Positions 4,005-38,041 of a stretch of 64,000 nucleotides of DNA are shown here, in pieces. Below the pieces are notes generated by a model. It had not been told where the DNA came from. It saw only the letters and a list, made by a program, of their open reading frames with translations, and did no database searches. Made by a program: the position numbers and the translations under genes. The stretch is from Pseudobdellovibrionaceae bacterium (GTDB lineage: Bacteria > Bdellovibrionota > Bdellovibrionia > Bdellovibrionales > UBA1609), in the NCBI GenBank assembly GCA_020635055.1, contig JACKAN010000001.1, positions 153,266 to 217,265 on the forward strand, given 5' to 3'. The first letter of the stretch is position 1, and every line of letters starts with the position of its first letter.

Positions 4005-4023
4005 TTTATTTTTCCATTAAATT

Positions 4024-8412: not shown

Positions 8413-8458
8413 TTATTCCTTTTGAGTTTCTTTTTCAATTAGTTTTGCTTTAATAATA

Positions 8459-8749: not shown

Positions 8750-8755
8750 ACTTGC

Positions 8756-9704: not shown

Positions 9705-9765
9705 AATCGTATATATAGCAAAATAGATGCCTAAAGGCAAAGCCAGCTTTTTTAAATTATTTAGG

Positions 9766-14306: not shown

Positions 14307-14495
14307 AAAAATTAGTATAACTCCTTCAGTTTCTTCGTCAAATTGAATTAGGGACTTGAGTTTATTCCATAGAATTCGAATTGAAAGTAAAATTGACCAA
14401 ATAAGTAATTCTATAAAAATAGTTTGAATTAAAGACTCTAAATTTTAAAGCTTTCTAAACCGATAGGAAATATATTTTAGTCAAATGAGGTTCGA

Positions 14496-15602: not shown

Positions 15603-15898
15603 AGAGAATCGACAACTGTCAGTATATTGAACTTAACAAGTTACTTTTAAACATCTGTATTTTCTAACAAGCAATAATTTTAAAGCTCAACAGTTGATGC
15701 CGGAAAGTTTTTTTAAAAAAAAATATTCAATTGTTAGTTTATAAATTTGAAATCAAAACAATTTTATTTTTAAAAATTTATTCAATTAAATCTAAAAACT
15801 TACATTTGTGATGGTGACACACAATCGTGAAATTTACTTACAATGAACTTGAAATTAAAGGACATACGGCTGGTTTTAATTTTGCATTTTAATTTTAC

Positions 15899-16948: not shown

Positions 16949-16996
16949 TTAAATTATTTTCAGAGAATACAAACTTTAAATTTAAGGGGGGTAGAA

Positions 16997-18778: not shown

Positions 18779-18861
18779 GAAAAAGGCTCCTGTTATAAAA
18801 AACTTTACCCATATTAACACCACCACTTGCTTTTGAATAGGGCGAGAATTATGAATTTCCT

Positions 18862-19608
18862 ATGAATTTGATTTCTCTAAATGAAGCCGACTTTTTATCA
18901 TTCAACTGTGTTCGTCTTGAAGATAGACGTTTTGCACATATTAAAAATGTTCTTAAGGTAGAGAAAGGAAAGAAACTAAGGGTGGGCCTCATTGGTGGAA
19001 AAATGGGGTGGGGTCAGGTTCTTAATATAACTTCTCGACAGGTGGAATTGGAAGTGGAACTCAATGAGGTGCCACCTATGCCAGCCTCTGTTGAACTTAT
19101 AATTGCTCTTCCTCGGCCAAAAAGTTTGCCACGTATAGTTCAAAGTTTGACGACATTGGGTATAAAAAGGGTGATTTTTCTGAATACTTGGAAGGTTGAA
19201 AAATGCTATTGGAGTTCGGATTATTTAAATACAAAATCTTTAGATCAAGCCGTTCTTTTGGGTTTGGAACAAGCCGTTGACACGGTACTACCAAAAATAG
19301 AATTTCATCGCTTGTTTAAACCCTTTATTGAGGACCATTTGGATAACTGGTGTTCTTCAAAAGAAAGGATTCTTTGTCATTTGCCAGCGAGAAAAGCTAA
19401 GGACTCTTCGTTTTTTGTTGATCCCAAGACAAACCCAGATTCCTCTTATGCCTTAGCCATCGGTCCAGAGGGTGGTTTTATAGATTATGAAGTGCAAAAA
19501 TTTTTGGATCAGGGTTTTAAACTCTATTCACTAGGACAGAGAGTACTTAAATTGGAAACGGCCATACCGGCTTTGGTTTCCCGATTTACTCAAACTTATA
19601 GGTGCTAA
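18862..19608 (+). CDS. rsmE: 16S rRNA (uracil1498-N3)-methyltransferase RsmE
   Basis: 248 aa with a PUA-like N-terminus and a SPOUT C-terminus carrying the ALAIGPEGGF motif typical of RsmE. Confidence 0.8.
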   Translation: MNLISLNEADFLSFNCVRLEDRRFAHIKNVLKVEKGKKLRVGLIGGKMGWGQVLNITSRQVELEVELNEVPPMPASVELIIALPRPKSLPRIVQSLTTLGIKRVIFLNTWKVEKCYWSSDYLNTKSLDQAVLLGLEQAVDTVLPKIEFHRLFKPFIEDHLDNWCSSKERILCHLPARKAKDSSFFVDPKTNPDSSYALAIGPEGGFIDYEVQKFLDQGFKLYSLGQRVLKLETAIPALVSRFTQTYRC

Positions 19609-19648
19609 TTCTATTGATGAAAAATCAAAATAGAGTTACATTTATGTA

Positions 19649-21319
19649 ATGTCAGAAAAAACTATAGAAGTTTCAAATTTTATTCGCAATATTATCGATT
19701 CCGATCTAAAAGTGGGAAAGAACAATGGCAAAGTGGTTACACGATTTCCGCCAGAACCCAATGGATATTTGCATATAGGTCATGCTAAGTCTATTTGCCT
19801 TAATTTTGGTATTGCTAGAGACTACAAAAGCATTTGCCATTTGCGATTTGATGATACCAACCCTTTGGCAGAAGATGTTGAGTATGTAGATTCCATTCAA
19901 AGTGATATTCAATGGTTGGGCTTTGATTGGGCAGATAAATTGTTTTTTGCTTCGGACTACTTTGACAAGCTTTATAACTTTGCAATTCAGCTTATTAAAA
20001 GTGGTAAGGCCTATGTGGATGAATCGAGTATAGATGAAATACGTCAACGCCGTGGAAGTTTAAGTGTACCCGGAGTGTCCAGCCCTTCAAGAGATAATTC
20101 CATTGAAAAGAACTTAGAACTTTTTGAAAAAATGCGCTCTGGTGAATTTGCCGAAGGTCATTGCGTTTTGCGTGCTAAAATCGATATGGCCTCCTCCAAT
20201 ATGAATTTACGAGATCCTATACTTTATCGTATTAGAAAGGTCGTTCACCATCGCACGGGAAATAAATGGCAAATATATCCTATGTATGATTACACCCATC
20301 CACTTTCTGATATGATTGAGGGCATTACACACTCCATTTGCACTTTAGAATTTGAAGATCATCGTCCACTTTATGATTGGGTACTTGATGAGTTGAAAAC
20401 GCCTTGTCACCCACAACAAATCGAGTTTGCTCGATTAAATTTAGATTATACAGTAATGAGTAAGAGAAAGCTTTTGGAATTAGTTGAAAAAAATCTTGTC
20501 AATGGCTGGGACGATCCGCGCATGCCTACAATCAGTGGAATGCGTCGTCGTGGTTACACACCTCAAGCCATAAGAAACTTTAGCGATCGTATAGGTGTAA
20601 CAAAAAAGAATTCTATTATTTCATTGAGTACTTTAGAGCATGCCGTAAGAGAAGACCTCGATGAAGTCACACCAAGAGCGATGGTTGTGATTCAGCCACT
20701 AAAAGTAGTTATTGAAAATTATCCGGTAGGTGAGGCTGAAGAGCTTCAAGGTTCTGTGCATCCTAAAAAACCAGAGCTTGGTCAACGTCAGATTCCATTT
20801 ACTAGGGAAATATATATTGAACGAGATGATTTTATGGAAAACCCACCCAAGGATTACTTTCGTTTAAGTCCAAATGGGGAAGTTCGTTTACGCTATGGCT
20901 ATGTGATCCACTGTCATGAAGTTATTAAAAATAACCATGGCGAGGTGGTAGAGTTGCGGGCGACATACGACAAGGAGACTAAAGGTGGAAAAACCCCAGA
21001 GGGCAAAAAAAAGGTGAAGGGGATTATACACTGGGTTTCAACCACAAAAAATGTTGAATGTGAAGTAAGGTTGTACGATAGACTTTTTAAAGTTCCAGAC
21101 CCCTTAGCTGATAAGACCATCGATTTTACTGAGAACATAAATGCTGATTCTTTAGTAGTTTTAAAAAAGGCATATGCTGAACCCAGCCTAAAAAATGTTA
21201 AAGCTGAAGAACGTTTTCAATTTGAAAGATTGGGATTTTTTTGTGCAGACAAAATTGATTGTAAGGATGGCAATCTTGTTTTTAATAGAACGGTAACCTT
21301 AAGGGACACATGGAAATAA
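19649..21319 (+). CDS. glnS: Glutaminyl-tRNA synthetase
   Basis: 556 aa with HIGH ([12 protein letters not shown]) and KMSKS (VMSKRK) motifs and the GlnRS-type C-terminal anticodon-binding region. Confidence 0.95.
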
Positions 21320-21738
21320 GAAGACTATTTTGGTCCTTTTTAATTTTAATTTGCATCTATATTTCGGGCAGTTTATCTTTTGCCTCTGAGAATATATTGA
21401 GTTTGAAATTAAAGTCCACACCTCCAGCTGACGAGAGCTATAGTCAAAGGTTTATTAAAAGCTACCAGCAGTGTGAGGAAGTATTTATAGCTAATAAAAA
21501 AGCTAATAAAAAATTAGTTCAAAATTATTTCAGCACTCCGCAAAATATTGATATTATTATTAATGTAAAAAAATCGGGTGTCATAGCGAATGTAAATATC
21601 CCCTTAAACACAAATAGTGATTTTCAATATAAAAAGTGGATGGCATGTCTTACTAAAAAAACATTTCAGTTTCAATTTCCAACACTTCCTAAAAATATAC
21701 GATATCATTTGGTTTTAGAGGCTAAAATCAATCATTAG
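21310..21738 (+). CDS. Hypothetical secreted protein
   Basis: 142 aa with a signal peptide (SLSFA|SE). The start overlaps the glnS stop by 10 nt. I recognise no family. Confidence 0.45.
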
Positions 21739-22240
21739 AACTTTCAAAAGTTCGTAGTAATTTGTTTTTTTTAAAATTAGGACCATGAAACAAATGTCCA
21801 TGAAAGGATAAATAATATCCAGGCGCAACTACCTGACTAGCATAAAGAGCTTCCGTAAAATTTTGAAGCGCATCACTATCATCAAAACCTGCGGGTTTCA
21901 TAGCACCAGTAAAAACAACGGGTATGGAAGGCTTTGCCAATTGATTATAGCAGTAGAGTAAAGTTTTATCTAAGGTATCGGTACCATGCAATACTACGAT
22001 ACCATCACATTGACCTAAGGATTCTTTAATACTTTGAAAAATAATTTCTCGATCCTCGTCGGTCATATGTAAAGAGTCTTTTGCCATCAATGTTTTTACT
22101 TTAACTTCGGTGTATGGAATTCGCAATTTCTCTATGAGTTTTCTTTGTAGCAGACTTTCACGATTTTCCAATGATCCTTCATCTTCTGAATAAGACTTTT
22201 CTATAGTGCCGCCAGTAGTAAGTATCCAAATATTTTTCAT
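21728..22240 (-). CDS. Asparaginase-family N-terminal-domain protein
   Basis: 170 aa. ILTTGGTIEK (the TGGTI threonine motif) and VVLHGTDTL are characteristic of the L-asparaginase/GatD N-terminal domain. Confidence 0.7.
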   Translation of the reverse strand: MKNIWILTTGGTIEKSYSEDEGSLENRESLLQRKLIEKLRIPYTEVKVKTLMAKDSLHMTDEDREIIFQSIKESLGQCDGIVVLHGTDTLDKTLLYCYNQLAKPSIPVVFTGAMKPAGFDDSDALQNFTEALYASQVVAPGYYLSFHGHLFHGPNFKKNKLLRTFESSND

Positions 22241-22441
22241 TTCCCTTGTTTATAACTCTTGCATTAAAAAGTCCATATAAGGGCTAATGTTTTATATTGA
22301 GACGTAAAAACATGTCTAGTTTCTGATACTTGTATTTATATAGGCATATCAAGTTGGGAAAAACTGCCTCAACTAAAAATAATAGCTCTTTGGGGTGGCA
22401 GGTCATTTGCTCTGTATATTTGGTATAACAAAGGGGAGATT

Positions 22442-22750
22442 ATGAAAAGGGGACTGTTAATTTTTAGTTTTAGTTTTTTACTTGTTAGCGTTTCTGCCAG
22501 TACTGTAAGTGCTAAAAACCTACCACAAAAATTACCAGTAAAAAGAGGCCCCGCATCTTTTACACAAGGGTTCAAAATTCTTAGTAAAAAATGCCAATTT
22601 CACGCAGAACCCAAAAGAACTAGTAAAGAGGTTTTTCAAGTAGAAGCGGGTAGAAAAATATGGTTTACAGCTGTTGATTCTCAATGGTTGATTGCAAAAA
22701 CAAAAAATGAAGCACTTAAGGTTTATCTACCTTCTTCATGTGTAAATTAA
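22442..22750 (+). CDS. Small secreted protein, possibly SH3b-like
   Basis: 102 aa with a signal peptide (VSA|KN). The C-terminal approximately 60 aa have a beta-rich SH3-like pattern. GGGGAG precedes the ATG. Confidence 0.45.
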   Translation: MKRGLLIFSFSFLLVSVSASTVSAKNLPQKLPVKRGPASFTQGFKILSKKCQFHAEPKRTSKEVFQVEAGRKIWFTAVDSQWLIAKTKNEALKVYLPSSCVN

Positions 22751-24081: not shown

Positions 24082-24382
24082 AAAAGAGGCCGGCGCCCTT
24101 TTAGGTGGGATAGAGATGGGAAGAATAGATAGGATAAAGATAGGATACTGTGAACTTTGATCAGCGCCGGGCTAACCCCCCCTGCAAGTTCCCCCCTCGT
24201 ACAAGATAAATATCTCATTTTTATTGACCTAAGGCGAGCAAAGTCGTAGACAGCTGCGGCGTTAAGTTGTCAAAAAGATTGGGTTTTTTGACAGTTCCCA
24301 TTCTCTTTTGTCAAGAACTCTGAAATACTTATTAAATTTGAAAGCAGCTTTTTTTATCGATATGTATAAGGTAAAAATAAAT

Positions 24383-25144
24383 ATGAGAATTCATTTTCTA
24401 AATATTCTTAATAGCACATTAATCATTTTAGTTTTTATTTTGTACTCCTTAACTTCTTATTCAGCAGAAATTTCGGTCGTAAAAGGAAAAAAAGCAATGA
24501 TTGTAAAAGCTCAAGGCGTAGAGCAAGGACTCACTTACAATGTGTTGGATAAAAATGATCGAATTAAGGGGCTTGTAAAAATATTGAAAATTAAAAAAGA
24601 TAAAGCCCTGGGTCAAATTGTAAAAGGAAGTATAAAGAAGGGATTTCGTTTAGAATTGGATAATTCTTTTTCTGATTTCAAAGACGATTTTAAAGAAGAT
24701 AACCGAAATTCTTTTTTTATTGGTAAAACCATTCGTAGTTATTTGGGTTTAGCAATGAGTTCGGATTTGCCAACTTCACCAATGCTTTATGGTGCGGATT
24801 ATCTTTATCCCTTTGAAAAAGTCATTACATTAAGAGCCGGAGCCATGTATTGGGCATTGAGTAATAATAATATAAGTTACAGCTTAATAGAAATTAGCGG
24901 AGGACCATTTTATAGCCACAATTTAACTCCAAAGTGGGAGCTCGAAGTGGGAGTTAGAATAGGCTTTAGTAAGTATTCTTTTTCCAGTTCAGGAACTTCC
25001 ATTACTATTATAAGCAGTGGTGCAGGGATGTATAATATCAATAAAAAAATGCAAGTTGGCGGTGAGTTTCGGTATCCTTATTTTTTATCCGATGTCGATT
25101 TTAAAGGATTTTATTTAATGGGAGTGTTTTCCTACAAACTGTGA
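24383..25144 (+). CDS. Hypothetical exported protein, possible small outer-membrane beta-barrel
   Basis: Start trimmed to MRIHFLN... (signal peptide ending YSA|EI). The C-terminal half has alternating hydrophobic beta-strand patterns and an aromatic-rich end (GVFSYKL). Confidence 0.45.
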   Translation: MRIHFLNILNSTLIILVFILYSLTSYSAEISVVKGKKAMIVKAQGVEQGLTYNVLDKNDRIKGLVKILKIKKDKALGQIVKGSIKKGFRLELDNSFSDFKDDFKEDNRNSFFIGKTIRSYLGLAMSSDLPTSPMLYGADYLYPFEKVITLRAGAMYWALSNNNISYSLIEISGGPFYSHNLTPKWELEVGVRIGFSKYSFSSSGTSITIISSGAGMYNINKKMQVGGEFRYPYFLSDVDFKGFYLMGVFSYKL

Positions 25145-26448
25145 TTTTTAACAAGGCGTAAACCCACAACATTGGATCGACTTTCTGGGCACGCATTAAT
25201 ATGATTTGTGCTACGAAAACTTTCTAAGTTACAGTTAAACCCACCCCCACGGATTGCTCGATGTTGTCCATTAATTGTGCCAATGGGATTTTCTTTGTCA
25301 TGATTTTTACTGGAATTCCAATTCCAATGCCATTGCCAATCTGAACCCCACTCCCAAACATTTCCATACAGTTCAAAAAAGGCATTTTTGTCAATATATA
25401 ATGGGTTCAATTGGGCTACGGGATGAGTCTTGTTTTCAGCATTGTCTGAATACCAAGCATACTGCCTAAAATTCATTTCAGAGTCATTTTGTTTGTTCTT
25501 TTGTTTAGTAGGACTAGCTAGACTTAGCATGTACTCCTGTTCTGCATCTGTAGGAAGCCTATAGCCTTCAGTAAGGTAAATATCTTCATTCACAGCATTT
25601 ATTTTTATTTCACCACTCTCTATATCCAAAGTCCCATCTTCAGCACGGGTACCTTCCCTCCATTTAATTTCACTGACATCATAAACGGGTTTAAGACCAA
25701 GTTCTTCGGATAATTTGTTGGCAAAAATAATTGCCGACCACCAAGTTATATTTTCAATTGGGTTATCCGGCTGTAATCGGATCTGTTTTCCATTATGAAT
25801 GATTACAATCGAATATTCACCATTCTTGTAAGCAGCTGGATTTTCTCCCATAATATCCACCCAATGTTTTTGCGTTACAACTGTCGACATGGCATCAAAT
25901 GATTGTTTAAACCTAACAATCATTTGATGTTCACCACGACCCATTAGAAACTGACCTTTAGGTATAGGGTAGAATTCTATTTTTTGATAAATGGATTGGG
26001 TTTCTATCCGGATTTCTTCACGTTGAATTTGAGTTTGTTTCATTTCTTTAACTTTACTTCGGGCATAGTTAAACAGTGTATCTATATTAAGGTCATTGTA
26101 TTGTAAATGCTCTTGGATCCCCTCCCAATGTATTAAAGCATCTATGTCTATCCAAGTCCTTTCTTTGTTAATGGGATTTGTAACCTTGCCTTCGCTTAAA
26201 CCATGGATAAAATTGTTTAGCTCAGATTCACCAATGATTTGTTTTTCTAATAGTGCTCCAAGATAGGCTATCAATTTTGACGTTCTATTTTTTTTTGTTT
26301 CTTTTATTGGTGTCGAGTAGTCTCTTGAAAAAGTCGAAAGTGCATTGGTGCAATTGCGATCCGCAAAAGAATGGCTCATGGATATGTTAATAATTAAGAA
26401 AACAAATGTTTTTATAAAAAAATTTAAATTGTTCAATCCACCCACCAC
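25132..26448 (-). CDS. Exported FGE-sulfatase (SUMF1/PvdO)-fold protein, paralog 2, lacking FGE catalytic cysteines
   Basis: 438 aa. YRLPTDAEQEYM, HPV...LNP, YGNVWEWGSDW and RGGGF are hallmarks of the FGE-sulfatase fold. It begins with a signal-like segment, and the GTG start is uncertain. Confidence 0.75.
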   Translation of the reverse strand: MVGGLNNLNFFIKTFVFLIINISMSHSFADRNCTNALSTFSRDYSTPIKETKKNRTSKLIAYLGALLEKQIIGESELNNFIHGLSEGKVTNPINKERTWIDIDALIHWEGIQEHLQYNDLNIDTLFNYARSKVKEMKQTQIQREEIRIETQSIYQKIEFYPIPKGQFLMGRGEHQMIVRFKQSFDAMSTVVTQKHWVDIMGENPAAYKNGEYSIVIIHNGKQIRLQPDNPIENITWWSAIIFANKLSEELGLKPVYDVSEIKWREGTRAEDGTLDIESGEIKINAVNEDIYLTEGYRLPTDAEQEYMLSLASPTKQKNKQNDSEMNFRQYAWYSDNAENKTHPVAQLNPLYIDKNAFFELYGNVWEWGSDWQWHWNWNSSKNHDKENPIGTINGQHRAIRGGGFNCNLESFRSTNHINACPESRSNVVGLRLVKNHSL

Positions 26449-26542
26449 AATTCTTACAGCAACTGGTATTTATTGCTGTAAATGCTCCTACCCAAAGTCA
26501 CAGTGAGGTTTTTTGTGTAATCCCATGGAAGCCCCAATGTGA

Positions 26543-26563
26543 CGAAAATGGCTTTGTAAGCCA
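26543..26563 (-). terminator. Rho-independent terminator-like hairpin between the two FGE-fold paralogs
   Basis: The minus strand reads ATGGCTT-aca-AAGCCAT followed by TTTT(C). It lies about 75 nt downstream of the stop of the 26639-27928 gene. Confidence 0.5.
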
Positions 26564-26638
26564 TAACAATGTTTTTTAAATTTTACAATTTTACTTTTTT
26601 TCTTTGCAATATTTGCTAACTAAAAATGCAATATGGAT

Positions 26639-27928
26639 TTAATTGAGTGTTCGCACTGGGCGGAAGCCAATAAAGAGACAGCGCAAGCCAGATTCTTGAC
26701 CGTAAATAGTTCCAAACAGTTCGGGAAACTCTTTAAAGTAAGCTCCGCCATCAATTTTGTGATAGGTGCTTTTCATTTTAGAGAAAAGCTTCTTTTCAGC
26801 CTTACTATGAATTTCATCCCCATCCCAAACCCATTCCCTTACATTACCTAAGGTATCATAAAACCCATTACCATTTATTATCATAGGGTTTAATTGGGCA
26901 ACGGGATGAGTTCTTTTTCCTGAGTTCTCTCGATACCAAGCATGGTTTTCAAGTTCGTCTTCATCGTTTCCAAAATAGTATTTGCATTCGGAGGAGCCGG
27001 CAGCTTGTAACATGTATTCTTGTTCTGCCAATGTTGGCAGTCTATATCCTTCGCTTAAGTAGTAATCTCCATTGGGTGCATTTATTTTTATTTCCCCACT
27101 TTCAAGGTCTAAGCTGCCGTCTTCAGCTGCTGTACCTGATTTCCATTCAATTCCACTTAAATCAAATGTTGGCTTTAACCCCTGTTTTTCAGACAAACGA
27201 TTTAAAAAGACAATTGCCGACCACACAGTGATATTCTCTGCCGGATTTTCTGGCTGCATAGTGATCGGACGTCCATGGATATCCACTGCAATTGAGTGTT
27301 CTCCTTTTTTAAACATAGATGGATTTTCACCCATAATCTCCACCCAATTTTTTTGCATTACAGGTGTGGACATAGCTTCAAAGGATTGAATTGGGAGAAC
27401 TACAGCTTTTTTCTTTTTCTTAACAATTTTTAAGTTTCCACTGGGAATTGGGAAAAACTCCATTTTTTGTGCTATGTCTTTTGTTTCTTCACTAGCTTCT
27501 TCGCGCTGTTCTGTGATCCTTTGCTTTTCGGCAAGGCTTTTTTTAGCAAACTCTAAGAGTGAAGTTTTATCCAGTTCAGTATGGTTTAAATAATTTTGAA
27601 TTTCTTCCCAGTGTATTAAGGCATCTATGCTGATCCAAGTTTTTTCTTTTTGAATAGGATTATTTAATTCACCTCTTTCCAAATCATCTATAAATATAAG
27701 TAATTCTGTACTTCCAATAATTTGATGTTCCAAAAGGGTGCCTAAATAAGCCTTCAAAGCCTCCGTTCTATTATTTCTATTTTTATGAGTTGAACTTAAG
27801 GCTTTGCTGCAATTAGTTTCAAGCATTTTGGAATTGGCGAAAATAAATGTTGGATTTAAACAGTTGATAAAGATGAACGCAAATAAAAATGCAATAGATT
27901 TTAAGAACAAAAAAAATCTGTTTGTCAT
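26639..27928 (-). CDS. Exported FGE-sulfatase (SUMF1/PvdO)-fold protein, paralog 1, lacking FGE catalytic cysteines
   Basis: 429 aa with YRLPTLAEQEYM, HPVAQLNP and LGNVREWVWDG, plus a signal peptide (FIFA|NS). The start overlaps the stop of the 1197-aa gene by 4 nt. Confidence 0.75.
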   Translation of the reverse strand: MTNRFFLFLKSIAFLFAFIFINCLNPTFIFANSKMLETNCSKALSSTHKNRNNRTEALKAYLGTLLEHQIIGSTELLIFIDDLERGELNNPIQKEKTWISIDALIHWEEIQNYLNHTELDKTSLLEFAKKSLAEKQRITEQREEASEETKDIAQKMEFFPIPSGNLKIVKKKKKAVVLPIQSFEAMSTPVMQKNWVEIMGENPSMFKKGEHSIAVDIHGRPITMQPENPAENITVWSAIVFLNRLSEKQGLKPTFDLSGIEWKSGTAAEDGSLDLESGEIKINAPNGDYYLSEGYRLPTLAEQEYMLQAAGSSECKYYFGNDEDELENHAWYRENSGKRTHPVAQLNPMIINGNGFYDTLGNVREWVWDGDEIHSKAEKKLFSKMKSTYHKIDGGAYFKEFPELFGTIYGQESGLRCLFIGFRPVRTLN

Positions 27929-30900
27929 TGTCTGTTTTCAACCCCTGCAGCTTCGCGGATCAAATGCCGCAATTGTTCTTGCTCAAAGTTACTCAGGTCC
28001 TGCAATTGGACACCAGTTAACTGTTCAAAGTTTGTGATAAGATCGTCAACAATTCTTTGTGAAATTTTTTTATCTTGAAAAAGAGGATGAATACGTTGTT
28101 GACGCACTTTAAGTATCCATCTTTCTAAAGGGCGATCGATCTGTTGAACATCTCGCCAAACTAGTTTTTCTAGATTATCTAAATGCTCTCGAGTCGATGT
28201 GTACTGATTACCAACATAAATATATTCAGAAAACTCATCAGCAAGTCCTATGGCTTCATGAAGAAGATCATAGACCTTTTGTGGAATCTTATCTGCAGAT
28301 TTATCTGTATAAAAAGTATTTTTTCCTTTTAAATTTAAATGATCGGCCTCATACAAAAAGTCCTTTATATGCTCAGCCGTAAACTCTCGATAAAATCCTT
28401 TTTCTGAACCCATGCTTTTGCTGTCATTAGCAAATTTCATTAGTTCGTCATTTGTTTGATTAATGGCAATGAACATGGTTTGCAGTGGTGTTTTTCTATT
28501 GATGGCGTTTCTGGCAATAATCAATTCGGAAGAATTGATCTCAGATTGTCCGTCTGTCATTAATATAATATTTGCTGCAGCCAGGGGTTCACCAGATCGT
28601 TTTTCGGCATCTGCAATTAAACTCATCCCTTGGAGTAGGGCTTTTTGTATGTCTGTACCGCCACCAGTATTTTTTAATTTGTTTTTGTAATTATCTATTA
28701 TATTTAAAGCATCGGATGTATTTGTGACAGTAATAGGGGCTCCTGGTTTAGAATCAAATGGAACAATAATTACAAGATGTCTATGGCGCCCATTTTTAGT
28801 TACATCACTTAAGGCTCGACCGGTAAAAGCAGAAATTAAAGCTGATTGAAATCGACCGGCATCGCCATTCATGCTTTTAGAAGTGTCGTAAAGTACAATC
28901 GTAATTCTTTCAGATTCTTCTTTTCCATAACCTGCTGCTATTTGAATTCGCTGTCTTCGACCTTGAACAAAGGCGGTTCCTTCTTTAATATTTTCTTCGA
29001 TGGATTTGCCAGGCTGACCCAGTAAAGCTCTCGAAATATCAGAAAATCTTTGAAGGGGTAGGAGGTCATTTCCTTTGGGTCTTAAAGGGTCTTTTTGCCA
29101 GGTTTTAATGTCAAGATATTCCGGGCGGGGAGTGGAATTAAGAATAAACTCTGAAAGAGGGCTAAGTATAGATAGTAATCGTAAATCATTAAGCTTAGCA
29201 TTTTTTAAAAGTTGAGCAATATGCAGTGTAGGACTATTAGGACCCACTTGATCTAAATCATATATCTGTTTTAGGAGCTGTCTAGGAACAGTCGGCAGTG
29301 ATGATACAAACTCTTTTACAAGACCAATATCTTGTGCGTCGGGATGAACCAATTCACCGATTAATTTCTGTGCGAGTTTTAAATTGTAAATTAGTTTTTG
29401 TGGAACAGGTATTTTATCATTATTGTCCAAAACATTCGAATAGCTGAGAAGGGCGGATATAATTCTATGTAACATCTGATAGCTTTTGTTAACATCCTGT
29501 TCTCGAAGCTCTCTTACAAGTCCAACAAGCCAATTTTTAAGTTCTGGATGCATTTCATTGTGGGCACTCATGGCTTGCTGAAATATTTGTTTAAAACTAG
29601 GAGAGTTAAATTTCTTTACTTGTGATGAAAGTTGATTGAGTTTGTTTTGAATATCTATTCCTGGTTGGGTAGGGTCTAAAACCGATTTAAATAATACACG
29701 CATTGCTCTTTCTAATAAGGGGTTGCGGTTTAATTTAGGTTCCAATTCTAATGATCCCAGTTCCAATTGATTAGCGAGTTCTTCCAGTGTCATTTGTTCT
29801 TCGGGATCACTCTCCTTTGCTTTTTTTCCTTTTTTCTCTTTTTTATTTACATCAGCTACTCTTTTTTGAGTATTCTTATCTAAACGGTCTTGGTGGTCCG
29901 GTTTTACTTGGTCACCGCTTTGACTTTGAGATTCCAACTCTGAACTATCTGGTTTATTCTGTTCACTTTCTGGTTCCTGGGTGCTCATTAGGTTTATGTC
30001 AGAATACTCAGTGTCTTCACTATCTTTGTCGTCTGATTTATCTTTTTTTCTAGGTGTAGGTTCAAATAAATACCATTTATTATCGGAATATACTTCCACC
30101 CAAACATGGGCGTCATTGGGAATAATTAAATAACTCTTGCCATCCGTGCCGCCCTTATAATTTTGAGCCTTAAACCCTTCACCAATTCTTGAAGGAATCT
30201 GGTATACATCACGGAGTATTCCAATCATCACATAAGCTGCCATATCACATTGAAATGCACCTGCTTTTAAGGCATCGATGGGATCGGTTTCTGGACGAGG
30301 GCCAACACTGTATAAATACTCCTTAGCTAAATGATCAGCTATGGCTTGTGCTACTTGAAGGGGGTTGGTTAGAGCCTCTTGCTTGGAAAACTTTCTTAAA
30401 ACTTCGGTTTGAATTCCTTCTGGCCATTCCTCAATATTAAAACCTACAGGACGTGTATAGATATCCTCCAAATGTGGCATCATAACTATATTGTTGTCTT
30501 CGATTAGTGGGATATGAACTTCAGGCAAATTTTCTTTCAACTTTAAAGAATAGGAACCCGTTTCGGTTTTAGAGATCAAGACTCTGGGGTCAGAAGCTTG
30601 AAGGGGCTTAAATCCCGGTGGAATAAATAAATCAACCTGGGACTCACCAAATGTTCGAATTGTCATTTTATTTTGAGTGGAATTATATTTTTGTGGATGT
30701 GTTTGGGTTATGGGTAATTTGGCCTCTTTAAATGGAAATTTCGTTCCTCTTACTATATTTGAAAAGTAAATTTGTGCAAAATAGGGGGTATTAAAATTAA
30801 CTTCAGCAAGCCTAGTTTTCTTTTGCTTGCCACCAGCAGTTGAAGTTTGTGTATCATTGGTGAAGGGTTTATATTCTTTTGCAAGTTTTGGATATTTAGG

Positions 30901-31518
30901 CTTTACGTCCTGTTCATGCAGTTCTTGTTTTCTCTGCTGTGAATCCGCCTGGACAAATTGTTTTTGCTCGTTACTTTGTTGTCCAACTTCGTCTAATGCT
31001 AAGTCAGACTCTTTATATCTCCCCAAATAATCTGTGGAATATTTAAGTGTTAAATACTGGCTCTGTAGTTCTACTCTATCTACATCTTTTTTTTGTAGTG
31101 AAAAATTGGCTTCATCGATAATCCATTGTATTAATTTTTCGTTATAAGAATGAGCACCTAAATAAAATTTTTTAAGTTGATGATTTATAATTGCTAGCGG
31201 ACTACTCGTCCATTTTCCATTTATTTGACGAATCGATAGTCGTTGAAAAATACGACTTCCTTGCTCAGGATTCCAAGCCAACATAAATGGGTCGCGATAG
31301 GGCCCCAATTTTTTCGAGTATAGTTCAATCAACATAGAGACCTGAGATAATTGATTAATAATTTTATCTTGAATAAGAGGGTTCTCAGATAGCTGAACTT
31401 CAGAAGGAGGATTCGCCACTTGTGACAGTTGCTTTTCACAAGGAGTTTCAGCAAATATTTTTTGTGAAAAAATATTTGCAAACAAAAATAATAAGACAAT
31501 GCAAAGCCTTTTATTCAT
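27925..31518 (-). CDS. Exported 1197-aa protein fusing a transglutaminase-like core to a vWA (MIDAS) domain
   Basis: Signal peptide (KIFA|ETP). The TGase core is GAFQCDMAAYVMIGILRDV...DAHVWVEVYSDNKWYLFEPTP. An acidic low-complexity linker follows. The vWA domain has DTSKS...GGGTDIQKAL...ILMTDGQSE. Confidence 0.8.
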   Translation of the reverse strand: MNKRLCIVLLFLFANIFSQKIFAETPCEKQLSQVANPPSEVQLSENPLIQDKIINQLSQVSMLIELYSKKLGPYRDPFMLAWNPEQGSRIFQRLSIRQINGKWTSSPLAIINHQLKKFYLGAHSYNEKLIQWIIDEANFSLQKKDVDRVELQSQYLTLKYSTDYLGRYKESDLALDEVGQQSNEQKQFVQADSQQRKQELHEQDVKPKYPKLAKEYKPFTNDTQTSTAGGKQKKTRLAEVNFNTPYFAQIYFSNIVRGTKFPFKEAKLPITQTHPQKYNSTQNKMTIRTFGESQVDLFIPPGFKPLQASDPRVLISKTETGSYSLKLKENLPEVHIPLIEDNNIVMMPHLEDIYTRPVGFNIEEWPEGIQTEVLRKFSKQEALTNPLQVAQAIADHLAKEYLYSVGPRPETDPIDALKAGAFQCDMAAYVMIGILRDVYQIPSRIGEGFKAQNYKGGTDGKSYLIIPNDAHVWVEVYSDNKWYLFEPTPRKKDKSDDKDSEDTEYSDINLMSTQEPESEQNKPDSSELESQSQSGDQVKPDHQDRLDKNTQKRVADVNKKEKKGKKAKESDPEEQMTLEELANQLELGSLELEPKLNRNPLLERAMRVLFKSVLDPTQPGIDIQNKLNQLSSQVKKFNSPSFKQIFQQAMSAHNEMHPELKNWLVGLVRELREQDVNKSYQMLHRIISALLSYSNVLDNNDKIPVPQKLIYNLKLAQKLIGELVHPDAQDIGLVKEFVSSLPTVPRQLLKQIYDLDQVGPNSPTLHIAQLLKNAKLNDLRLLSILSPLSEFILNSTPRPEYLDIKTWQKDPLRPKGNDLLPLQRFSDISRALLGQPGKSIEENIKEGTAFVQGRRQRIQIAAGYGKEESERITIVLYDTSKSMNGDAGRFQSALISAFTGRALSDVTKNGRHRHLVIIVPFDSKPGAPITVTNTSDALNIIDNYKNKLKNTGGGTDIQKALLQGMSLIADAEKRSGEPLAAANIILMTDGQSEINSSELIIARNAINRKTPLQTMFIAINQTNDELMKFANDSKSMGSEKGFYREFTAEHIKDFLYEADHLNLKGKNTFYTDKSADKIPQKVYDLLHEAIGLADEFSEYIYVGNQYTSTREHLDNLEKLVWRDVQQIDRPLERWILKVRQQRIHPLFQDKKISQRIVDDLITNFEQLTGVQLQDLSNFEQEQLRHLIREAAGVENRQ

Positions 31519-31523
31519 AGCTC

Positions 31524-33149
31524 TTATTCTTTGGATTTAAGCAACATAAGCTCGAATGAAGATCTATCTGGGTTATTTGTGTTTTTTTGTGCCGGATTTC
31601 TAGCTCGCAGCAATATAGATCCTTTTAGTGAAGCCATATGTTTTAGAAAAATTCTTTTGAATCTATTTTGTTCGGCGATTAAATTTTTAATCAATTGCTT
31701 TTCTGTTTGATCTTTTGCTGTTTCAGGATCAATTGACCAATTAAAATCAATATCCAGTTCATTATTGGCTTCTTGATTAATTGTAAGCCGAGTATTTCCA
31801 GGACCTGTAGTGGACAAGACAAAAACAGTTCTCCATAAAGATAAGGGATCTATCTTAATTTTATTAGAAGTTATACTTTCTAGATTTTCATCATCAGCTA
31901 AAGGAGATAGTAAAAAATCAAGGAATACAGACTTTTTAACTATTTCTGGAATGCCTTTTCTAAAACGTTCATTGTAATCGGCGGATGAAATATCAACATA
32001 TTGATCTTGATTCCCACTACCAGAATTGGTTTCAAGATTATTATAGTGTTTATGAGTTTCCTGCCGCATTTCTTCTACAAACAGTCGAAATGTCGTCATA
32101 AAATGGGAATTGGGTTCAAATAGTATATTTGCAAGCTCTCTAAGTTCAGTCCAATCCAAAGACTCTGGCTCTAGAAACACCTCATCTCTAAAAACTTCAG
32201 GATAAGTTCTCGATAATGAGAGTAAGTATCGTTTTCTTTGTTCACGTTGATCTAGTATAGCCTGGTTTTTTAAAGATAACCAGTTGTACATAATAGCTTT
32301 AAACTGATAACGGCTAAAATGTGCTGGTGCCGTTGAACCTAATCCGTTTTCCCTAAATAATTTATACATTTCTGCAATGTTAGCATTGCTAGTTGCAAAC
32401 AATGTTTCAAGTTGTCCATCAAAGGTTTTATTTCCTGTAAAAATTTTCCCTTCATTCATTAAACTAAAGAGAGCTGGGAATATGGAAGGATGTGCTTTGT
32501 CGATTTCATCAATTTGACCAACTTTAAAATCGGCCAAACTTCCCTCTGTATTAATTATATACTTACCCTTTTTTGCAGCCTCGAAATCCTGACCACCAAT
32601 AAATGCTTGTTCTGTAATGGCTTGATGCAATTGAATTCTAAATGCGGGATCAGCCTCACCTCTTAAGAACCAATTTACAAAAGCGGATTTTGTACTGCCA
32701 GTCGGGCCATGAATAAAAAAATGTCCTTTTGCTAATCGTGCAAGGAGGCCTACATGATGAGCTGAGTCTAAATTTAAAAATTGGCTACTAAAAAGCCTAT
32801 CTCTTCTGCGGAGGATATCTCGTCCTTTCTTGAGCGCTTGCAGTCCTTCATTAGTTAATCCCTTATATTCAAAAGTGATGGGGTCAATAAATACAAGGGG
32901 GGGTCTCTCTGGGGTCTTATCACCTTCAGAACTATCAGAGTTTTGATTGTTATCTCGTATTAAATGCAGTTCACATTCACTTTTTCCCACTTGTATTGGA
33001 GATTCTTCTTTTTTGTTATCTTCTGTAAGGCCTTGAAAAGAAAAAAAGGAAATAAAAACAATAGTGAGAAAGATTGAAGAGCTATTAAAAAGAAGTCTAT
33101 GATTAAACTTATATAGACCTTTAAGTTTAGACTTTAAAACACACAACAT
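31524..33149 (-). CDS. MoxR-like AAA+ ATPase with N-terminal signal/anchor segment
   Basis: 541 aa. Walker A is FIHGPTGSTKSAF, Walker B is VGQIDEIDKA and sensor-1 is LFATSNAN. The N-terminus is basic and then hydrophobic (KSKLKGLYKFNHR-LLFNSSSIFLTIVFISFFSF). The stop lies 5 nt before the next start. Confidence 0.75.
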   Translation of the reverse strand: MLCVLKSKLKGLYKFNHRLLFNSSSIFLTIVFISFFSFQGLTEDNKKEESPIQVGKSECELHLIRDNNQNSDSSEGDKTPERPPLVFIDPITFEYKGLTNEGLQALKKGRDILRRRDRLFSSQFLNLDSAHHVGLLARLAKGHFFIHGPTGSTKSAFVNWFLRGEADPAFRIQLHQAITEQAFIGGQDFEAAKKGKYIINTEGSLADFKVGQIDEIDKAHPSIFPALFSLMNEGKIFTGNKTFDGQLETLFATSNANIAEMYKLFRENGLGSTAPAHFSRYQFKAIMYNWLSLKNQAILDQREQRKRYLLSLSRTYPEVFRDEVFLEPESLDWTELRELANILFEPNSHFMTTFRLFVEEMRQETHKHYNNLETNSGSGNQDQYVDISSADYNERFRKGIPEIVKKSVFLDFLLSPLADDENLESITSNKIKIDPLSLWRTVFVLSTTGPGNTRLTINQEANNELDIDFNWSIDPETAKDQTEKQLIKNLIAEQNRFKRIFLKHMASLKGSILLRARNPAQKNTNNPDRSSFELMLLKSKE

Positions 33150-33649
33150 CTATCCTTCTGTATGAAAGCAAGTTGATTTTGGATAAAGCTATCCATTGCC
33201 CCAATATGGGGTAAATTTTTCCAGCAACTTGCATCGCCGGTCTTCGTATTTAGTAGTGTCCCCCGTTGATAGAATAATTTTTTGAACGTGTTTTACTGTG
33301 AACTTTTCCATTGTCTATAAATGGATCTAACTAATAGCGCATTCATTCTTCTGTATGGGCCTCAAAATATCTTTTGTGTCGGCAGGCATTTTTTATCTTG
33401 CCGCACTCACATAGATCAATCGTGCCATAACAATGTTGGATATAAAACGCGGGAGTGCCAGTCTCCTCTTGGACGTATTTTATCGTTAAACCGTCAAGCA
33501 GATATTGGGCCTCTTCCCACACCTCAAGTTCACCCGAAGTTATTCCTAAACAATAAAAAGTATTTCGTTTCTCGATTTCCACGTGAAAAAGGAAATAAAC
33601 TTCTTACATCACATCCTTGTGTTATTCAGATCTCTTAAGGCACTATCAG

Positions 33650-34696
33650 CTAAATCTTCTGATTATAAAATTCCAAACGTAATCTTTTCCTTTCTTTGAG
33701 ATATTCATCGTAGTTGTCATTGTAGGTGTCATTATTTTTTAATAAACACAGAGATATCGAGGCAATCCTTCTAGCTAAACTTAGCTTAGCTGCTTTGTGA
33801 TTAATGCCTTTAGCTCTCAAAGCATCGTAATAATCACGAAGAGTACTGTCTGTGCGCAGGGCACTCTCTGCAGCACCTATAAAGACATCTCTCAACTCCC
33901 TTCTCCCAAAAAATCTTTTGTTACCATATATTTTCCCACCGGATTTCTGTATATGACGAACTAACATACAATAACCCCAAAACCGATGCTTGTTTTTAAA
34001 TCTTGCTGGCTGACATACGATGGCCGCAATAATATTTGCTCGTATCAAATTAATTCCAGGTATAGTTATTAAATTGCGAATAGGGCGATATTGTTTTTTA
34101 TTTTTTGTGAACAAATCTCTATATTTTAATTTTTCACTTTCTAAAAACTCAATCTGATTAAATAACTTCTCCGCTACAAATTTCGCTGAGGGGTTTTTCA
34201 ACCTATTTACTAAATCTTTATTTTTATAAAAACTATTTTCACTCGTACTTAACGCCTCAGCTCTAAATAATGACTTCAATCTATTTTTAAATCTGACAAT
34301 CTCTTGAACAATATCTAAGTATCCACTCACCGATACTCTGATTTCGCTCCAATGTGAGGCGTCGTGAAAAACGGGTTGCAAATGATTAGTTCGTAACTCA
34401 TGGGCCAAATGAAGAGCATCCCTAAAATCTGTCTTAGCACCTGACTTTTTGGCAACATAGGTAGGGTTACAAACTAGAAGCTCATCCACGGTGTCTTTGA
34501 GTTGTAAATAAAGCCATTGGGAAATTGTGGACTCCTCAAAGGTAAGTGACCTCACACCATGAACTTTGTTAATTACATAAACCAGATTTTTCTCTGAAGT
34601 AATAACGGTTTCCCTTAAAACGCAGTCTCCTTGCTCATTAACTACGGCAAAAGTCGAGGTTGTGCTATGGGCATCTAATCCTATATAATATTTCAT
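33650..34696 (-). CDS. IS110-family transposase (DEDD recombinase)
   Basis: 348 aa. The N-terminus is MKYYIGLDAHSTT (DEDD_Tnp_IS110-like). The C-terminal Transposase_20-like region reads LITIPGINLIRANIIAA...ARFKNKHRFWGYCML...KSGGK...GRRELRDVF. AAGGAG lies 7 nt upstream of the ATG. Confidence 0.9.
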   Translation of the reverse strand: MKYYIGLDAHSTTSTFAVVNEQGDCVLRETVITSEKNLVYVINKVHGVRSLTFEESTISQWLYLQLKDTVDELLVCNPTYVAKKSGAKTDFRDALHLAHELRTNHLQPVFHDASHWSEIRVSVSGYLDIVQEIVRFKNRLKSLFRAEALSTSENSFYKNKDLVNRLKNPSAKFVAEKLFNQIEFLESEKLKYRDLFTKNKKQYRPIRNLITIPGINLIRANIIAAIVCQPARFKNKHRFWGYCMLVRHIQKSGGKIYGNKRFFGRRELRDVFIGAAESALRTDSTLRDYYDALRAKGINHKAAKLSLARRIASISLCLLKNNDTYNDNYDEYLKERKRLRLEFYNQKI

Positions 34697-34890: not shown

Positions 34891-34916
34891 AGTTCGAGGT
34901 CCTCTTTCTGGACGCA
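34891..34916 (+). repeat. 26-nt repeat unit A (agttcgaggtcctctttctggacgca) adjacent to the IS110 copy
   Basis: Read directly. It recurs 86 nt downstream as unit B. Confidence 0.8.
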
Positions 34917-34976: not shown

Positions 34977-35016
34977 AGTTCGAGGTCCTCATCTCGAGGT
35001 CCTCTTTCCGGACGCA
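34977..35016 (+). repeat. Repeat unit B: unit A with an internal 14-nt re-duplication (agttcgaggtcctc-atc-tcgaggtcctctttccggacgca)
   Basis: Read directly. It shares agttcgaggtcctc and tcgaggtcctctttcYggacgca with unit A. Confidence 0.8.
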
Positions 35017-36694: not shown

Positions 36695-37888
36695 TTAAAA
36701 CCTTTTAGCAAGGCCAATATTAAAACCCAAATATTGTTTTGAGAGCGATCTACTGTTGTTTGCATTGCCGTTTATTTTTGCCTGACTTGCATTCACTTTT
36801 GAAAATTCAATACCAGTAACAAGATCCCAGTTGGGCAGAAAGTTTAATTCAGTATATCCATTTAACAATAGTCTTAACATAGTTGGTTTTTCATAACTTG
36901 CAGTGGCTGACAAATTTGTTTCAGTAATATTACAATAAACTATACAAAAATTAAGATCTAATTCAAATTGACTTCCCCATGATGGAGACAATACTTGCAA
37001 ACCTAAATTTAATCCTAAAGATGTCATATTTAAGCTGTCATCACCTTTAACTTCGTTTAAGTGAAGGGACGAGCCTATTAAGGGAATTAACTGGTGACTC
37101 CCAAGTGTCCAAATATAATTTTCAGGTTGTTTAGCATTAATTAAAATTTGAGTGTTAGATACCCCATGAAAAGCGGTAGTTAGACTCGGCTTAGATTTGG
37201 ACAGATCATCTTTACCAACAGAATATGATAAAAAGACTCTCCCGTTCTTATGAAAATCAAAGTTAGAAAAACCGCCAAGACGCAAACTGCCGCCATCAAA
37301 TTTTTGATTATCAATCGAAAATTGGCTTTGTCCGTAACTAAAAATCATCCCCGCAAAACTTGTTTTTGGTTTTTCCCAGATACTTAATTTATCTGGATTT
37401 TTTAATAATAAGTGATCTCCAACAAGGATTTCATCTCTATAAGGGCAAAGGGAAGTGTTTACAAGAATTAACTCCTCTTCAATTGCTGAAATAGGCAGGA
37501 GGCAAATGTCATTTTGTGTTCTAATATAGGCTATGAAAACATTGTTAGTGTTGAGATTGTGATTTGAAAGTTTCAAGTAAATTAATTTCTTAGATTCAAT
37601 GACTTTTTTTACTTGAAAGTTTGTATTGATAAACTCAGTTGGAACTTTAAATTTTGTGTAATCTATTTTTTCTTTATTAAATGGATTTAAGCTTTTATTC
37701 AGTCTATTAAGAAAAGAATCTGAGTCTGAACTCGTTTCAATATTTAAATCAGGTTTTGATTTTGTGTCTTCAATGGTTGGATTGGAAGTGATTTGATCAC
37801 TGGCTGTTGGGTTTTCTTTAGCTTGTAAAAGAACACTATTTTGGAGAAAAAACAAACTGAACATCAATGATAAAAAAACAAGTTGCAT
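36695..37888 (-). CDS. Hypothetical outer-membrane beta-barrel-like protein
   Basis: Start trimmed to MQLVFLSLMFSLFFLQNSVLLQA|KE (signal peptide). The C-terminal half is beta-strand-like and ends in ...GLAKRF, a terminal Phe typical of outer-membrane proteins. Confidence 0.5.
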   Translation of the reverse strand: MQLVFLSLMFSLFFLQNSVLLQAKENPTASDQITSNPTIEDTKSKPDLNIETSSDSDSFLNRLNKSLNPFNKEKIDYTKFKVPTEFINTNFQVKKVIESKKLIYLKLSNHNLNTNNVFIAYIRTQNDICLLPISAIEEELILVNTSLCPYRDEILVGDHLLLKNPDKLSIWEKPKTSFAGMIFSYGQSQFSIDNQKFDGGSLRLGGFSNFDFHKNGRVFLSYSVGKDDLSKSKPSLTTAFHGVSNTQILINAKQPENYIWTLGSHQLIPLIGSSLHLNEVKGDDSLNMTSLGLNLGLQVLSPSWGSQFELDLNFCIVYCNITETNLSATASYEKPTMLRLLLNGYTELNFLPNWDLVTGIEFSKVNASQAKINGNANNSRSLSKQYLGFNIGLAKRF

Positions 37889-38041
37889 TTTCACAGCTGT
37901 ACCCCTGGTCACTGAGTTCGATTGTATCAGTTTATTTAGTAAAAACAAAACCAACTAAAGGTCCATAAACTTTAATCTAGTTGTTCGTTACTATCTAAAT
38001 TATCATTAAGTAAATGTAAGAATTTAACGATTTACCTTCTG

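Follow-up and report, generated by a model that had tools for sequence, protein, structure and literature searches.

MoxR ATPases and their von Willebrand factor A (vWA) partner proteins are understood as cytoplasmic chaperone modules. Here we describe a four-gene system in which a MoxR-type AAA+ ATPase, a transglutaminase-like (TGase) domain fused to a vWA domain, and variable binding proteins that share a constant N-terminal adaptor all carry predicted export signals. The genes span positions 25132-33149 of a 64,000-nucleotide stretch (the window) of contig JACKAN010000001.1 (assembly GCA_020635055.1), which belongs to a metagenome-assembled genome (MAG) with the NCBI label Bdellovibrionaceae/Pseudobdellovibrionaceae.

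Among the closest described systems, the MoxR-vWA ternary conflict systems carry hypervariable domains of the formylglycine-generating enzyme (FGE)-sulfatase type (FGS domains), which are often diversified by diversity-generating retroelements (DGRs) (PMC7159879, PMC8195603, PMC10907252). For systems that combine MoxR, vWA and transglutaminase-like (TGL) components, it was predicted that the vWA protein recruits a substrate, MoxR unfolds it and the TGL protein cleaves it (Zhang and Aravind 2012, Cell Cycle 11:3861, PMC3495828). TgpA is essential in Pseudomonas aeruginosa, where it is co-transcribed with PA2875 and PA2874, and in vitro its periplasmic domain acts as a transglutaminase (Milani et al. 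2012, PLoS One 7:e50323, PMC3507681). The only extracellular MoxR-vWA precedent that we found is the p618/p892 pair of Acidianus two-tailed virus (ATV), as it is cited in a survey of ternary systems (Scheele et al. 2011, cited in Kaur et al. 2020, PMC7159879).

Gene order and distribution

The four genes lie on the minus strand, as do all features given for them below, and run in one direction. The order, lengths and spacing proposed in the initial annotation, made from the sequence alone, agree exactly with the coordinates of the open reading frames (ORFs). The first gene of the operon (31524-33149) encodes a 541-aa MoxR AAA+ ATPase of the bpMoxR clade, assigned by Pfam, a match to RavA and synteny. 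After a 5-nt gap follows the gene for the 1197-aa TGase-vWA fusion protein (27925-31518), recognized by Pfam and by an AlphaFold2 (AF2) model. It overlaps by 4 nt the gene for FGSA (26639-27928, 429 aa), and a 190-nt spacer separates FGSA from FGSB (25132-26448, 438 aa, GTG start). Both FGS proteins have a predicted signal peptide, a cysteine motif (at Cys40 in FGSA and Cys33 in FGSB), the adaptor and an FGS-fold domain, which is TvpA-like in FGSB and has a degenerate C-terminal variable region in FGSA. Pfam recovered all the domains that had been claimed for the four proteins, and gave no DUF58 match in any of them, also as claimed. The three proteins held by NCBI have generic names there (AAA family ATPase; VWA domain-containing protein; SUMF1/EgtB/PvdO family).

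Start codons of the last two genes are called differently in public resources: NCBI begins FGSA at M35 (MCB9024835.1, 395 aa) and Logan begins FGSB at M24 (415 aa). These shorter starts remove the signal peptides, which hinge on the use of upstream start codons; orthologues favor the long forms.

At 90% identity, the fusion protein family forms just 53 clusters in a set of 5.8 billion proteins. Almost all of these clusters are annotated with both TGase and vWA, and the one-domain clusters (TGase alone) are mostly truncated or very divergent. Among 185,579 species-representative genomes we found 19 loci, all in MAGs. Most are labeled Bdellovibrionales, Bacteriovoracales/-ia, Oligoflexales or Pseudobdellovibrionaceae, five are labeled Myxococcaceae, Myxococcales or Deltaproteobacteria, and three "uncultured bacterium". 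Wherever upstream DNA exists, the MoxR gene lies directly upstream of the fusion gene (20 rows, 18 distinct loci), and the same gene order recurs in over 20 contigs that were obtained independently, by different studies and from different lineages. Conservation across the 19 GTDB species representatives and the metagenome contigs means that the adjacency noted in the initial annotation is not due to chance.

The full system also occurs on a 6.7-kb contig (L005, JBFWVJ010000019.1) assigned to Candidatus Altimarinota (Patescibacteria), which is probably a piece of Bdellovibrionota DNA placed in the wrong bin.

Conserved active sites in the ATPase and the fusion protein

The ATPase matches the Pfam family bpMoxR (PF20030) at 2e-10 (40.4 bits, cut-off 27) and also AAA_5, whereas AAA_3 reaches 15.2 bits against a cut-off of 27, below both. 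PF20030 is also present in the precomputed annotation of the MoxR proteins from two related loci (L001 and L002); in a third (L003) that annotation holds no Pfam match. The best PDB sequence match is RavA (1e-14). The AAA+ core (residues ~120-263, 32361-32792) has intact Walker A (GPTGSTKS), Walker B (IDEIDK) and sensor-1 (TSN) motifs. In an alignment of 20 orthologues with 22-48% identity (A2), G148, G151 and K154 of Walker A, D214 and E215 of Walker B, N255 of sensor-1, and R280 are invariant, and S155 is present in at least 90% of sequences. The P-loop of the family reads GPPGGAKS.

The fusion protein matches Transglut_core (1.5e-11, residues 382-487) and VWA_2 (residues 873-991); VWA_2, VWA_3 and VWA_CoxE together cover residues ~866-1022. 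Its AF2 model (mean pLDDT 77.7) begins with the signal peptide (residues 1-23), followed by a helical domain (47-166), a disordered stretch (172-231), a beta-sandwich (235-340), the TGase core (348-490), a disordered acidic linker (497-598), a second helical domain (600-792), a beta element with the vWA domain (800-1060) and a helical C-terminus (1080-1191). No beta-propeller is present in the model, in which residues 1080-1191 are wholly alpha-helical, and no Pfam propeller family matched. The beta-sandwich and transglutaminase-like core (residues ~235-490, 30049-30816) carry the catalytic residues C424, H471 and D486, and the vWA domain (residues ~866-1060, 28339-28923) has a complete metal ion-dependent adhesion site (MIDAS), D878-x-S880-x-S882, T955 and D989. 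Among 22 orthologues with 29-61% identity (alignment A1), the TGase triad is invariant or nearly so and all five MIDAS residues are invariant. The residue conservation in both proteins indicates that MoxR and TGase-vWA alike are under selection to remain catalytically competent.

The best structural match of the fusion protein (Foldseek) is the periplasmic domain of P. aeruginosa TgpA (6G4H and 6G49; E 6e-8 and 1e-7, TMt 0.57-0.60), followed by vWA/I domains and the MIDAS domain of Rea1. TgpA is also its sole PDB sequence match. The fusion protein has just one hydrophobic segment, at its N-terminus.

In the most divergent clade, the locus L021 has two tandem MoxR paralogs ahead of the fusion gene (6962-10004).

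A constant adaptor carries interchangeable binding domains

Searches with phmmer and jackhmmer among the ORFs of all loci showed that the genes after the fusion gene have a common N-terminal region of ~100 aa regardless of their C-terminal domain. This region, which we call the adaptor and for which Pfam has no model, was absent from the initial annotation. So were two features described below, the greater variety of C-terminal modules and hypervariability of the DGR type. Related loci contain 58 adaptor ORFs, 1 to 13 per locus. In FGSA the adaptor spans residues ~37-164 (27437-27820; found by jackhmmer) and in FGSB residues ~49-165 (25954-26304), where the AF2 model (pLDDT 87) shows four helices (52-68, 74-85, 97-115 and 122-150) ahead of the FGS domain (159-435). 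The exposed loop between the second and third helices (86-96) bears a near-invariant N91-P92.

A word-index search with the adaptor domain gave no match, and an exhaustive profile search of 1.84 billion representatives was used instead. It placed the adaptor in 346 clusters, 139 of them at E<=1e-10. In the best 150 of the 346 the adaptor starts within the first ~120 residues, mostly at 20-60, and the proteins are mostly 370-460 aa long; 132 of these 150 representatives have an FGS domain (local jackhmmer classification). The identifiable C-terminal partners are all binding scaffolds: the FGS fold, FGS combined with leucine-rich repeats (LRRs; L023), LRRs (L016), RCC1-like propellers (L002, L009 and L015) and PQQ/ACSF4-like propellers (L008). 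Tetratricopeptide repeats (TPRs) were not found in adaptor proteins. The divergent locus L021 (and, by motif, L003) has paralogs without a Pfam domain that nevertheless have a signal peptide, the cysteine motif and an adaptor-like helix.

The FGS domains are confirmed by Pfam (FGE-sulfatase, 4e-16 for FGSA and 8e-24 for FGSB). By sequence, FGSB matches Treponema denticola TvpA best among PDB entries (2Y3C, 2.4e-22), with true FGEs at just 1e-4 to 1e-5, and its best fold match by Foldseek is again TvpA (E 3e-19, TMt 0.72). The closest solved relative by both sequence and fold is thus a DGR variable protein and not an FGE, in agreement with the proposal that the two paralogs are non-catalytic. 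They had also been called cysteine-less. This is not literally so, but the conserved, copper-binding catalytic Cys pair of FGEs is indeed lacking: neither a 46-sequence nor a 129-sequence consensus has a conserved Cys in the region of the FGE active site.

We considered whether the adaptor pairs homotypically with the core proteins, as effector-associated domains (EADs) do. This was rejected, as hhalign comparisons of the adaptor profile with the TGase-vWA and MoxR alignments gave no homology.

Two side observations concern the adaptor arrays of relatives. L021 has at least seven downstream paralogs (13545-22741, 332-513 aa) that lack any Pfam domain and keep the signal peptide, cysteine motif and adaptor-like helix. 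In L009, directly after two RCC1-type adaptor genes, a 629-aa protein (16084-17973) combines a hydrophobic N-terminus with an ABC1 atypical-kinase domain. Judged by these features, it would be a second ATP-dependent enzyme with an apparent export signal.

Variable regions with a DGR signature

The variability is clearest in a relative whose contig (ERZ28763718 ctg124207, record 1,076,693-1,111,719; L001/L024/L026/L027) carries two complete tandem MoxR/TGase-vWA systems with 6 and 12 FGS units after them; a number of these units are frameshifted or split. Nine full-length paralogs are nearly identical save for their last ~50 residues. Of 96 aligned nucleotide columns in the variable region, 48 differ among copies, with the changes concentrated at the first and second codon positions; over the remainder of the FGS gene the figure is 110 of 1131, and there the third position predominates. 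Thirteen hypervariable codons (L001/L026/L027) have the form NNC or NNT with the third base fixed. The same 3' sequence follows each of the variable regions aligned, with a perfect hairpin (AATTCGC-CTA-GCGAATT) after all but one. As read from the alignment, this pattern is the hallmark of adenine-directed DGR mutagenesis, and the units together make up a DGR-type array with multiple targets. The variability falls at the C-terminus, on the ligand-binding surface of the FGS domain.

In FGSB the equivalent of the variable region (residues ~403-428, 25165-25242) lies between RGGG and VGLRLV and aligns with the variable region of TvpA. It shares the 25-codon frame of the relative's variable regions and has NNY at 12 of the 13 hypervariable positions, five of them AAY; it has no sister copies. 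Of the two paralogs in the window, FGSB alone is compatible with the adenine-specific pattern. Other arrays (L025, with at least 16 genes, L013 and L022) diverge mainly between conserved GG and GFRLV anchors. A crude motif search for reverse transcriptase-like ORFs found none in any locus, the window included.

Predicted export signals and a shared cysteine motif

Nearly all orthologues of the three protein classes have, as judged by eye, a short positive n-region, a hydrophobic core of 10-15 residues and an AXA-like cleavage site. Examples from MoxR orthologues are MFKTIFSILLLTTPVLA|QN (L017), MKYLSIMFFLLSNLLHA|ES (L015) and MRAMFKVLLTTFLLSISVSA|QD (L002). The signal-peptide-like starts that had been proposed for every component of the window thus appear to hold across orthologues, including the ATPase. 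In the window, the fusion protein begins with the predicted signal peptide MNKRLCIVLLFLFANIFSQKIFA|ETP (31450-31518), and all 22 aligned fusion orthologues have an N-terminal hydrophobic segment. MoxR has a hydrophobic segment at residues 19-38 (LLFNSSSIFLTIVFISFFSF, 33036-33095) that could be a signal peptide or a signal anchor. The NCBI starts of both proteins take in these segments. A rule-based signal-peptide score, which is crude and was counted just as support for the reading by eye, was positive for 18 of 21 MoxR proteins, 19 of 20 TGase-vWA proteins and 40 of 54 adaptor proteins, as against 55 of 163 background ORFs (34%). We also count for export the fact that the closest solved relatives, the periplasmic domain of TgpA and TvpA, are extracytoplasmic; TvpA is a surface lipoprotein. 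Published papers on MoxR-vWA ternary systems either do not mention a signal peptide or do so only for some DGR targets, and never for MoxR.

A lone Cys soon after the signal peptide, in the motif C-x-x-x-[LF]-[LS], is found in all three protein classes. In the window it is represented by Cys59 of MoxR (SE-C-ELHL), Cys27 of the fusion protein (TP-C-EKQLS, 31438-31440), Cys40 of FGSA (TN-C-SKALS, 27809-27811) and Cys33 of FGSB (RN-C-TNALS, 26350-26352). Every sampled component has the motif in 13 loci (with all three classes represented in eight), no component has it in six, and two loci are mixed. The six loci that lack it form one clade. Loss on one occasion may explain the co-variation among components, which is still compatible with a common sorting signal or with disulfides between the proteins in an oxidizing compartment. 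A lipoprotein reading of the motif was rejected, since the Cys lies 3-8 residues past the AXA-like site and no lipobox precedes it.

Intergenic sequence and flanking genes

The hairpin that the initial annotation placed between FGSA and FGSB is present at 26548-26564 (7-bp stem and 3-nt loop, ATGGCTT-ACA-AAGCCAT, then TTT). It is weak, however, and a terminator scan of the window did not report it; the promoter and terminator scan was itself uninformative, with fewer sites than in shuffled sequence. The 13-mer ACATTGTTATGGC occurs twice on the minus strand, at 26560-26572, where it overlaps this hairpin, and at 33424-33436, between MoxR and an IS110-family element; the repetition could be due to chance, or could mark a shared regulatory or target element.

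The IS110-family transposase gene (33650-34696) is a single copy in the window, ~500 bp upstream of MoxR, and confirms the insertion sequence reported at the promoter-proximal end of the operon. The suggestion that the system is therefore accessory DNA is not supported. No insertion sequence lies beside the system in the flank tables of four related loci, although transposases were not searched systematically, and tblastn searches of 72,556 plasmids and 50,697 phage records with the fusion protein gave no match, on which ground a mobile-element origin was rejected. The annotated flanks of the four loci differ from one another. L002 alone among them is set among housekeeping genes, with mreBCD, penicillin-binding protein 2 (PBP2) and rodA on one side and secY, adk and tig on the other. 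The window has genes for GlnRS, an asparaginase, a dicarboxylate symporter and an aldo-keto reductase on its flanks. The differing flanks, the housekeeping setting of L002 and the lack of plasmid or phage matches lead us to regard the IS110 copy as local to this genome and not as evidence of a mobile island.

Several other features of the surroundings were recorded. Near IS110, a 23-bp direct repeat occurs at 34894-34916 and 34994-35016, 100 bp apart. Other proteins that look secreted are common in the neighborhood: 38042-40552 encodes an FG-GAP (integrin-alpha-like) repeat protein of 836 aa, and four ORFs near the operon (24308-25144, 36695-37954, 40719-41234 and 41424-42737) have hydrophobic N-termini and no Pfam match. 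The first of these lies on the opposite strand and overlaps the 3' end of FGSB by 13 nt. Farther away, a co-oriented minus-strand run (1071-8131) includes a 780-aa protein (5789-8131) that NCBI names DUF87 domain-containing; DUF87 is HerA/FtsK-like.

Proposed function and alternatives

Our best reading of this chromosomal operon, to which we give about an even chance, is an extracytoplasmic machine in three parts: MoxR, its TGase-vWA co-factor and adaptor-tagged variable binders for external ligands, the last being client proteins that number two in the window and up to about 18 in relatives. By analogy with Rea1/midasin, RavA-ViaA and the predicted MoxR-vWA-TGL degradation system, the vWA MIDAS would dock the constant adaptor domain, for which the FGSB loop around N91-P92 and E96 is a candidate site, and the MoxR ring would use ATP to remodel the complex. 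The TGase module could then clip the adaptor off, or transamidate the binder onto an envelope or target protein, so that diversified binders would end up armed or anchored outside the cytoplasm. Their ligands would be variable external ones such as prey envelope, competitors, phage or epibionts, and one possible source of ATP would be a prey-derived pool in the invaded prey compartment.

A number of points weigh against this reading. Docking of the MIDAS on the adaptor is pure inference from the analogies given above. We know of no periplasmic or extracellular pool of ATP, and still the ATPase motifs show strict conservation. An exported, catalytically intact AAA+ ATPase is the most surprising aspect of the proposal, and rests on a sequence-based reading. 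In the window the MoxR segment, with its 20 residues and no clear AXA site, may be a membrane anchor. The patchy distribution (19 species representatives, none of them cultured) is not that of a core predation function. Finally, neither a template repeat nor a reverse transcriptase was found in 35 kb of the relative's contig, in which the end of the array is reached, and the 64-kb window contains no second copy of the 3' end of FGSA, whose variable region is degenerate, or of FGSB. Active DGR diversification is therefore unproven in the DNA searched.

A more specific form of the proposal strikes us as rather unlikely when taken as a whole. Here, secreted MoxR and TGase-vWA would load, clip or covalently attach DGR-diversified, adaptor-tagged lectin, LRR and propeller binders, giving predatory bacteria an antibody-like extracellular recognition that runs on ATP scavenged from prey.

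Envelope maintenance of the TgpA type is an unlikely alternative in our judgment. The system would then serve neither conflict nor recognition: MoxR, vWA and transglutaminase would have as substrates a family of structural proteins of the periplasm or cell surface, to be matured, cross-linked or degraded, and the variability would be a by-product of surface exposure. The structural proximity of the TGase module to the periplasmic domain of TgpA, which is essential in P. aeruginosa, agrees with such a role, and so do the housekeeping flanks of L002 and the window and the lack of plasmid or phage copies. It is harder to reconcile with a patchy distribution, or with client arrays of up to about 18 copies that contain pseudogenes and a DGR-type mutational signature. 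Moreover, the identifiable client modules are all generic ligand-binding scaffolds, as would be expected of recognition repertoires.

We consider it distinctly unlikely that the proteins are secreted effectors, delivered with the signal peptides as a first step, whose site of action is the invaded prey compartment or the cytoplasm of prey or host. ATP would be available there, which could account for the strict conservation of the ATPase motifs in a protein with an export signal. The records bear lineage labels of predatory bacteria, and RCC1 and LRR modules, which are typical of effectors acting in other cells, occur in relatives. However, the flank tables of related loci and the window hold no secretion-system genes linked to the locus, and an oxidizing compartment would suit the lone Cys that is conserved behind the signal peptide. 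The DGR-type lectin fold also points elsewhere, as the proteins of this kind studied so far (TvpA, LdtA and Mtd) are, to our knowledge, surface-displayed.

Could this be an ordinary cytoplasmic MoxR-vWA ternary conflict system, in which the hydrophobic segments are mis-called starts or tethers and the proteins stay inside the cell? The bpMoxR match, the known partnership of FGS domains and DGRs with cytoplasmic ternary systems, and the start calls of FGSA and FGSB, which differ between pipelines, would be in keeping with it. We nevertheless find it very improbable. Orthologues with 22-48% identity keep positive n-regions, short h-regions (10-15 residues) and AXA-like sites, directly at a first Met that is not in doubt; the N-termini have the geometry of signal peptides and not of a reverse anchor, and the NCBI starts of MoxR and TGase-vWA include the segment. 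Further, the system has no VMAP, iSTAND or FtsH component and no vWA-linked propeller. Chance adjacency or an assembly artefact involving the four genes, for which nothing speaks but the nearby IS110 copy, is refuted by the recurrence of their order in independent contigs and has a negligible probability.

If the export signals are functional, the extracytoplasmic machine that we favor would include a family of intact AAA+ ATPases in a compartment thought to be without ATP, and this raises the question of energy sources in the periplasm or in invaded prey. Its architectural principle would be a constant N-terminal adaptor that fits interchangeable binding modules onto a fixed MoxR/transglutaminase-vWA core, a design that parallels the effector-associated-domain logic of bacterial immune systems but is placed outside the cell. 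The system also ties DGR-type hypermutation to Bdellovibrio-like organisms, a pairing for which a full-text literature search with DGR and Bdellovibrio returned no paper. The arrays, with as many as about 18 variable genes, may be relevant to how predators recognize prey or are defended, and the adaptor domain and the diversifiable lectin scaffold are possible parts for protein engineering.

Comparison with known systems

The initial annotation had not recognized this combination of genes, and the architecture appears to be without a name: PADLOC defense-system models gave no meaningful match, the NCBI protein names are generic, and papers on MoxR-vWA ternary systems do not contain this arrangement. 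The ternary systems described by Kaur, Burroughs, Iyer and Aravind (2020, eLife 9:e52696, PMC7159879) are nevertheless similar in several respects. They share the MoxR and vWA core and a hypervariable third element, which includes TvpA-related FGS domains (C-type-lectin fold) with a DGR signature. Propellers occur among their variable parts, and several paralogous systems per genome are possible. The bpMoxR family, defined by the MoxR of their beta-propeller class, is matched here, and their GXXXTAKS P-loop variant resembles the GPPGGAKS of the family described above.

The differences are equally clear. Those systems are described as cytoplasmic or membrane-associated, with no mention of an exported MoxR, whereas all components here carry predicted export signals. 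The vWA protein here carries a TgpA-like transglutaminase at its N-terminus and ends in helices instead of a propeller, and the variable modules are separate proteins with a constant N-terminal adaptor instead of C-terminal fusions to vWA. The VMAP class in particular fuses its effector or FGS domains C-terminally to vWA, while the FGS domains here are on separate polypeptides; the four proteins have no VMAP-type Pfam match, the loci have no extra conserved gene, and no iSTAND or FtsH component was found. No enzymatic effector domain (TIR, nuclease or caspase) was identified in the system. In the beta-propeller class, the third component has a variable N-terminus, a membrane segment and C-terminal TPRs and propeller. 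Here, in contrast, the N-terminus is constant and the C-terminus variable, and propellers occur just in the adaptor proteins of some relatives. The records that contain the system are also mostly labeled Bdellovibrionota, which sets it apart from the systems of Kaur et al.

The MoxR-DUF58-TgpA/YebA operon, whose MoxR and DUF58 genes we take to be PA2875 and PA2874, likewise combines MoxR, a vWA-type protein and a transglutaminase-like domain with a Cys-His-Asp triad. TgpA (6G49) is the best structural match of the TGase module, and this domain of TgpA is periplasmic. However, TgpA is a multi-pass inner-membrane protein that goes with a cytoplasmic MoxR and a separate DUF58 protein, whereas the TGase and vWA domains here form one soluble polypeptide that is predicted to be exported. 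In addition, the MoxR here is of the AAA_5/bpMoxR type and not AAA_3, and the operon includes adaptor-tagged client genes, which are absent from that of TgpA.

DGR variable proteins such as TvpA (2Y3C) and Mtd of Bordetella phage resemble the FGS proteins in fold, in a C-terminal variable region that ends in GFRLV, and in export. They differ in that the proteins described here have an additional N-terminal adaptor and are linked to MoxR/TGase-vWA and not to a reverse transcriptase cassette. The MoxR (p618) and vWA (p892) proteins of ATV, as far as they are described in the citing survey, are alike in that such a pair is tied to an extracellular process, tail development. They come from an archaeal virus that has no transglutaminase or variable binders in this system.

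The system thus joins the MoxR-vWA-TGL triad with the MoxR-vWA ternary systems, both of them described before, and shows the defining features of neither class in full. What is new relative to these classes is the predicted export of the whole system, the fusion of TGL and vWA in one protein, and a constant adaptor that appears to link separate variable binders to the core.

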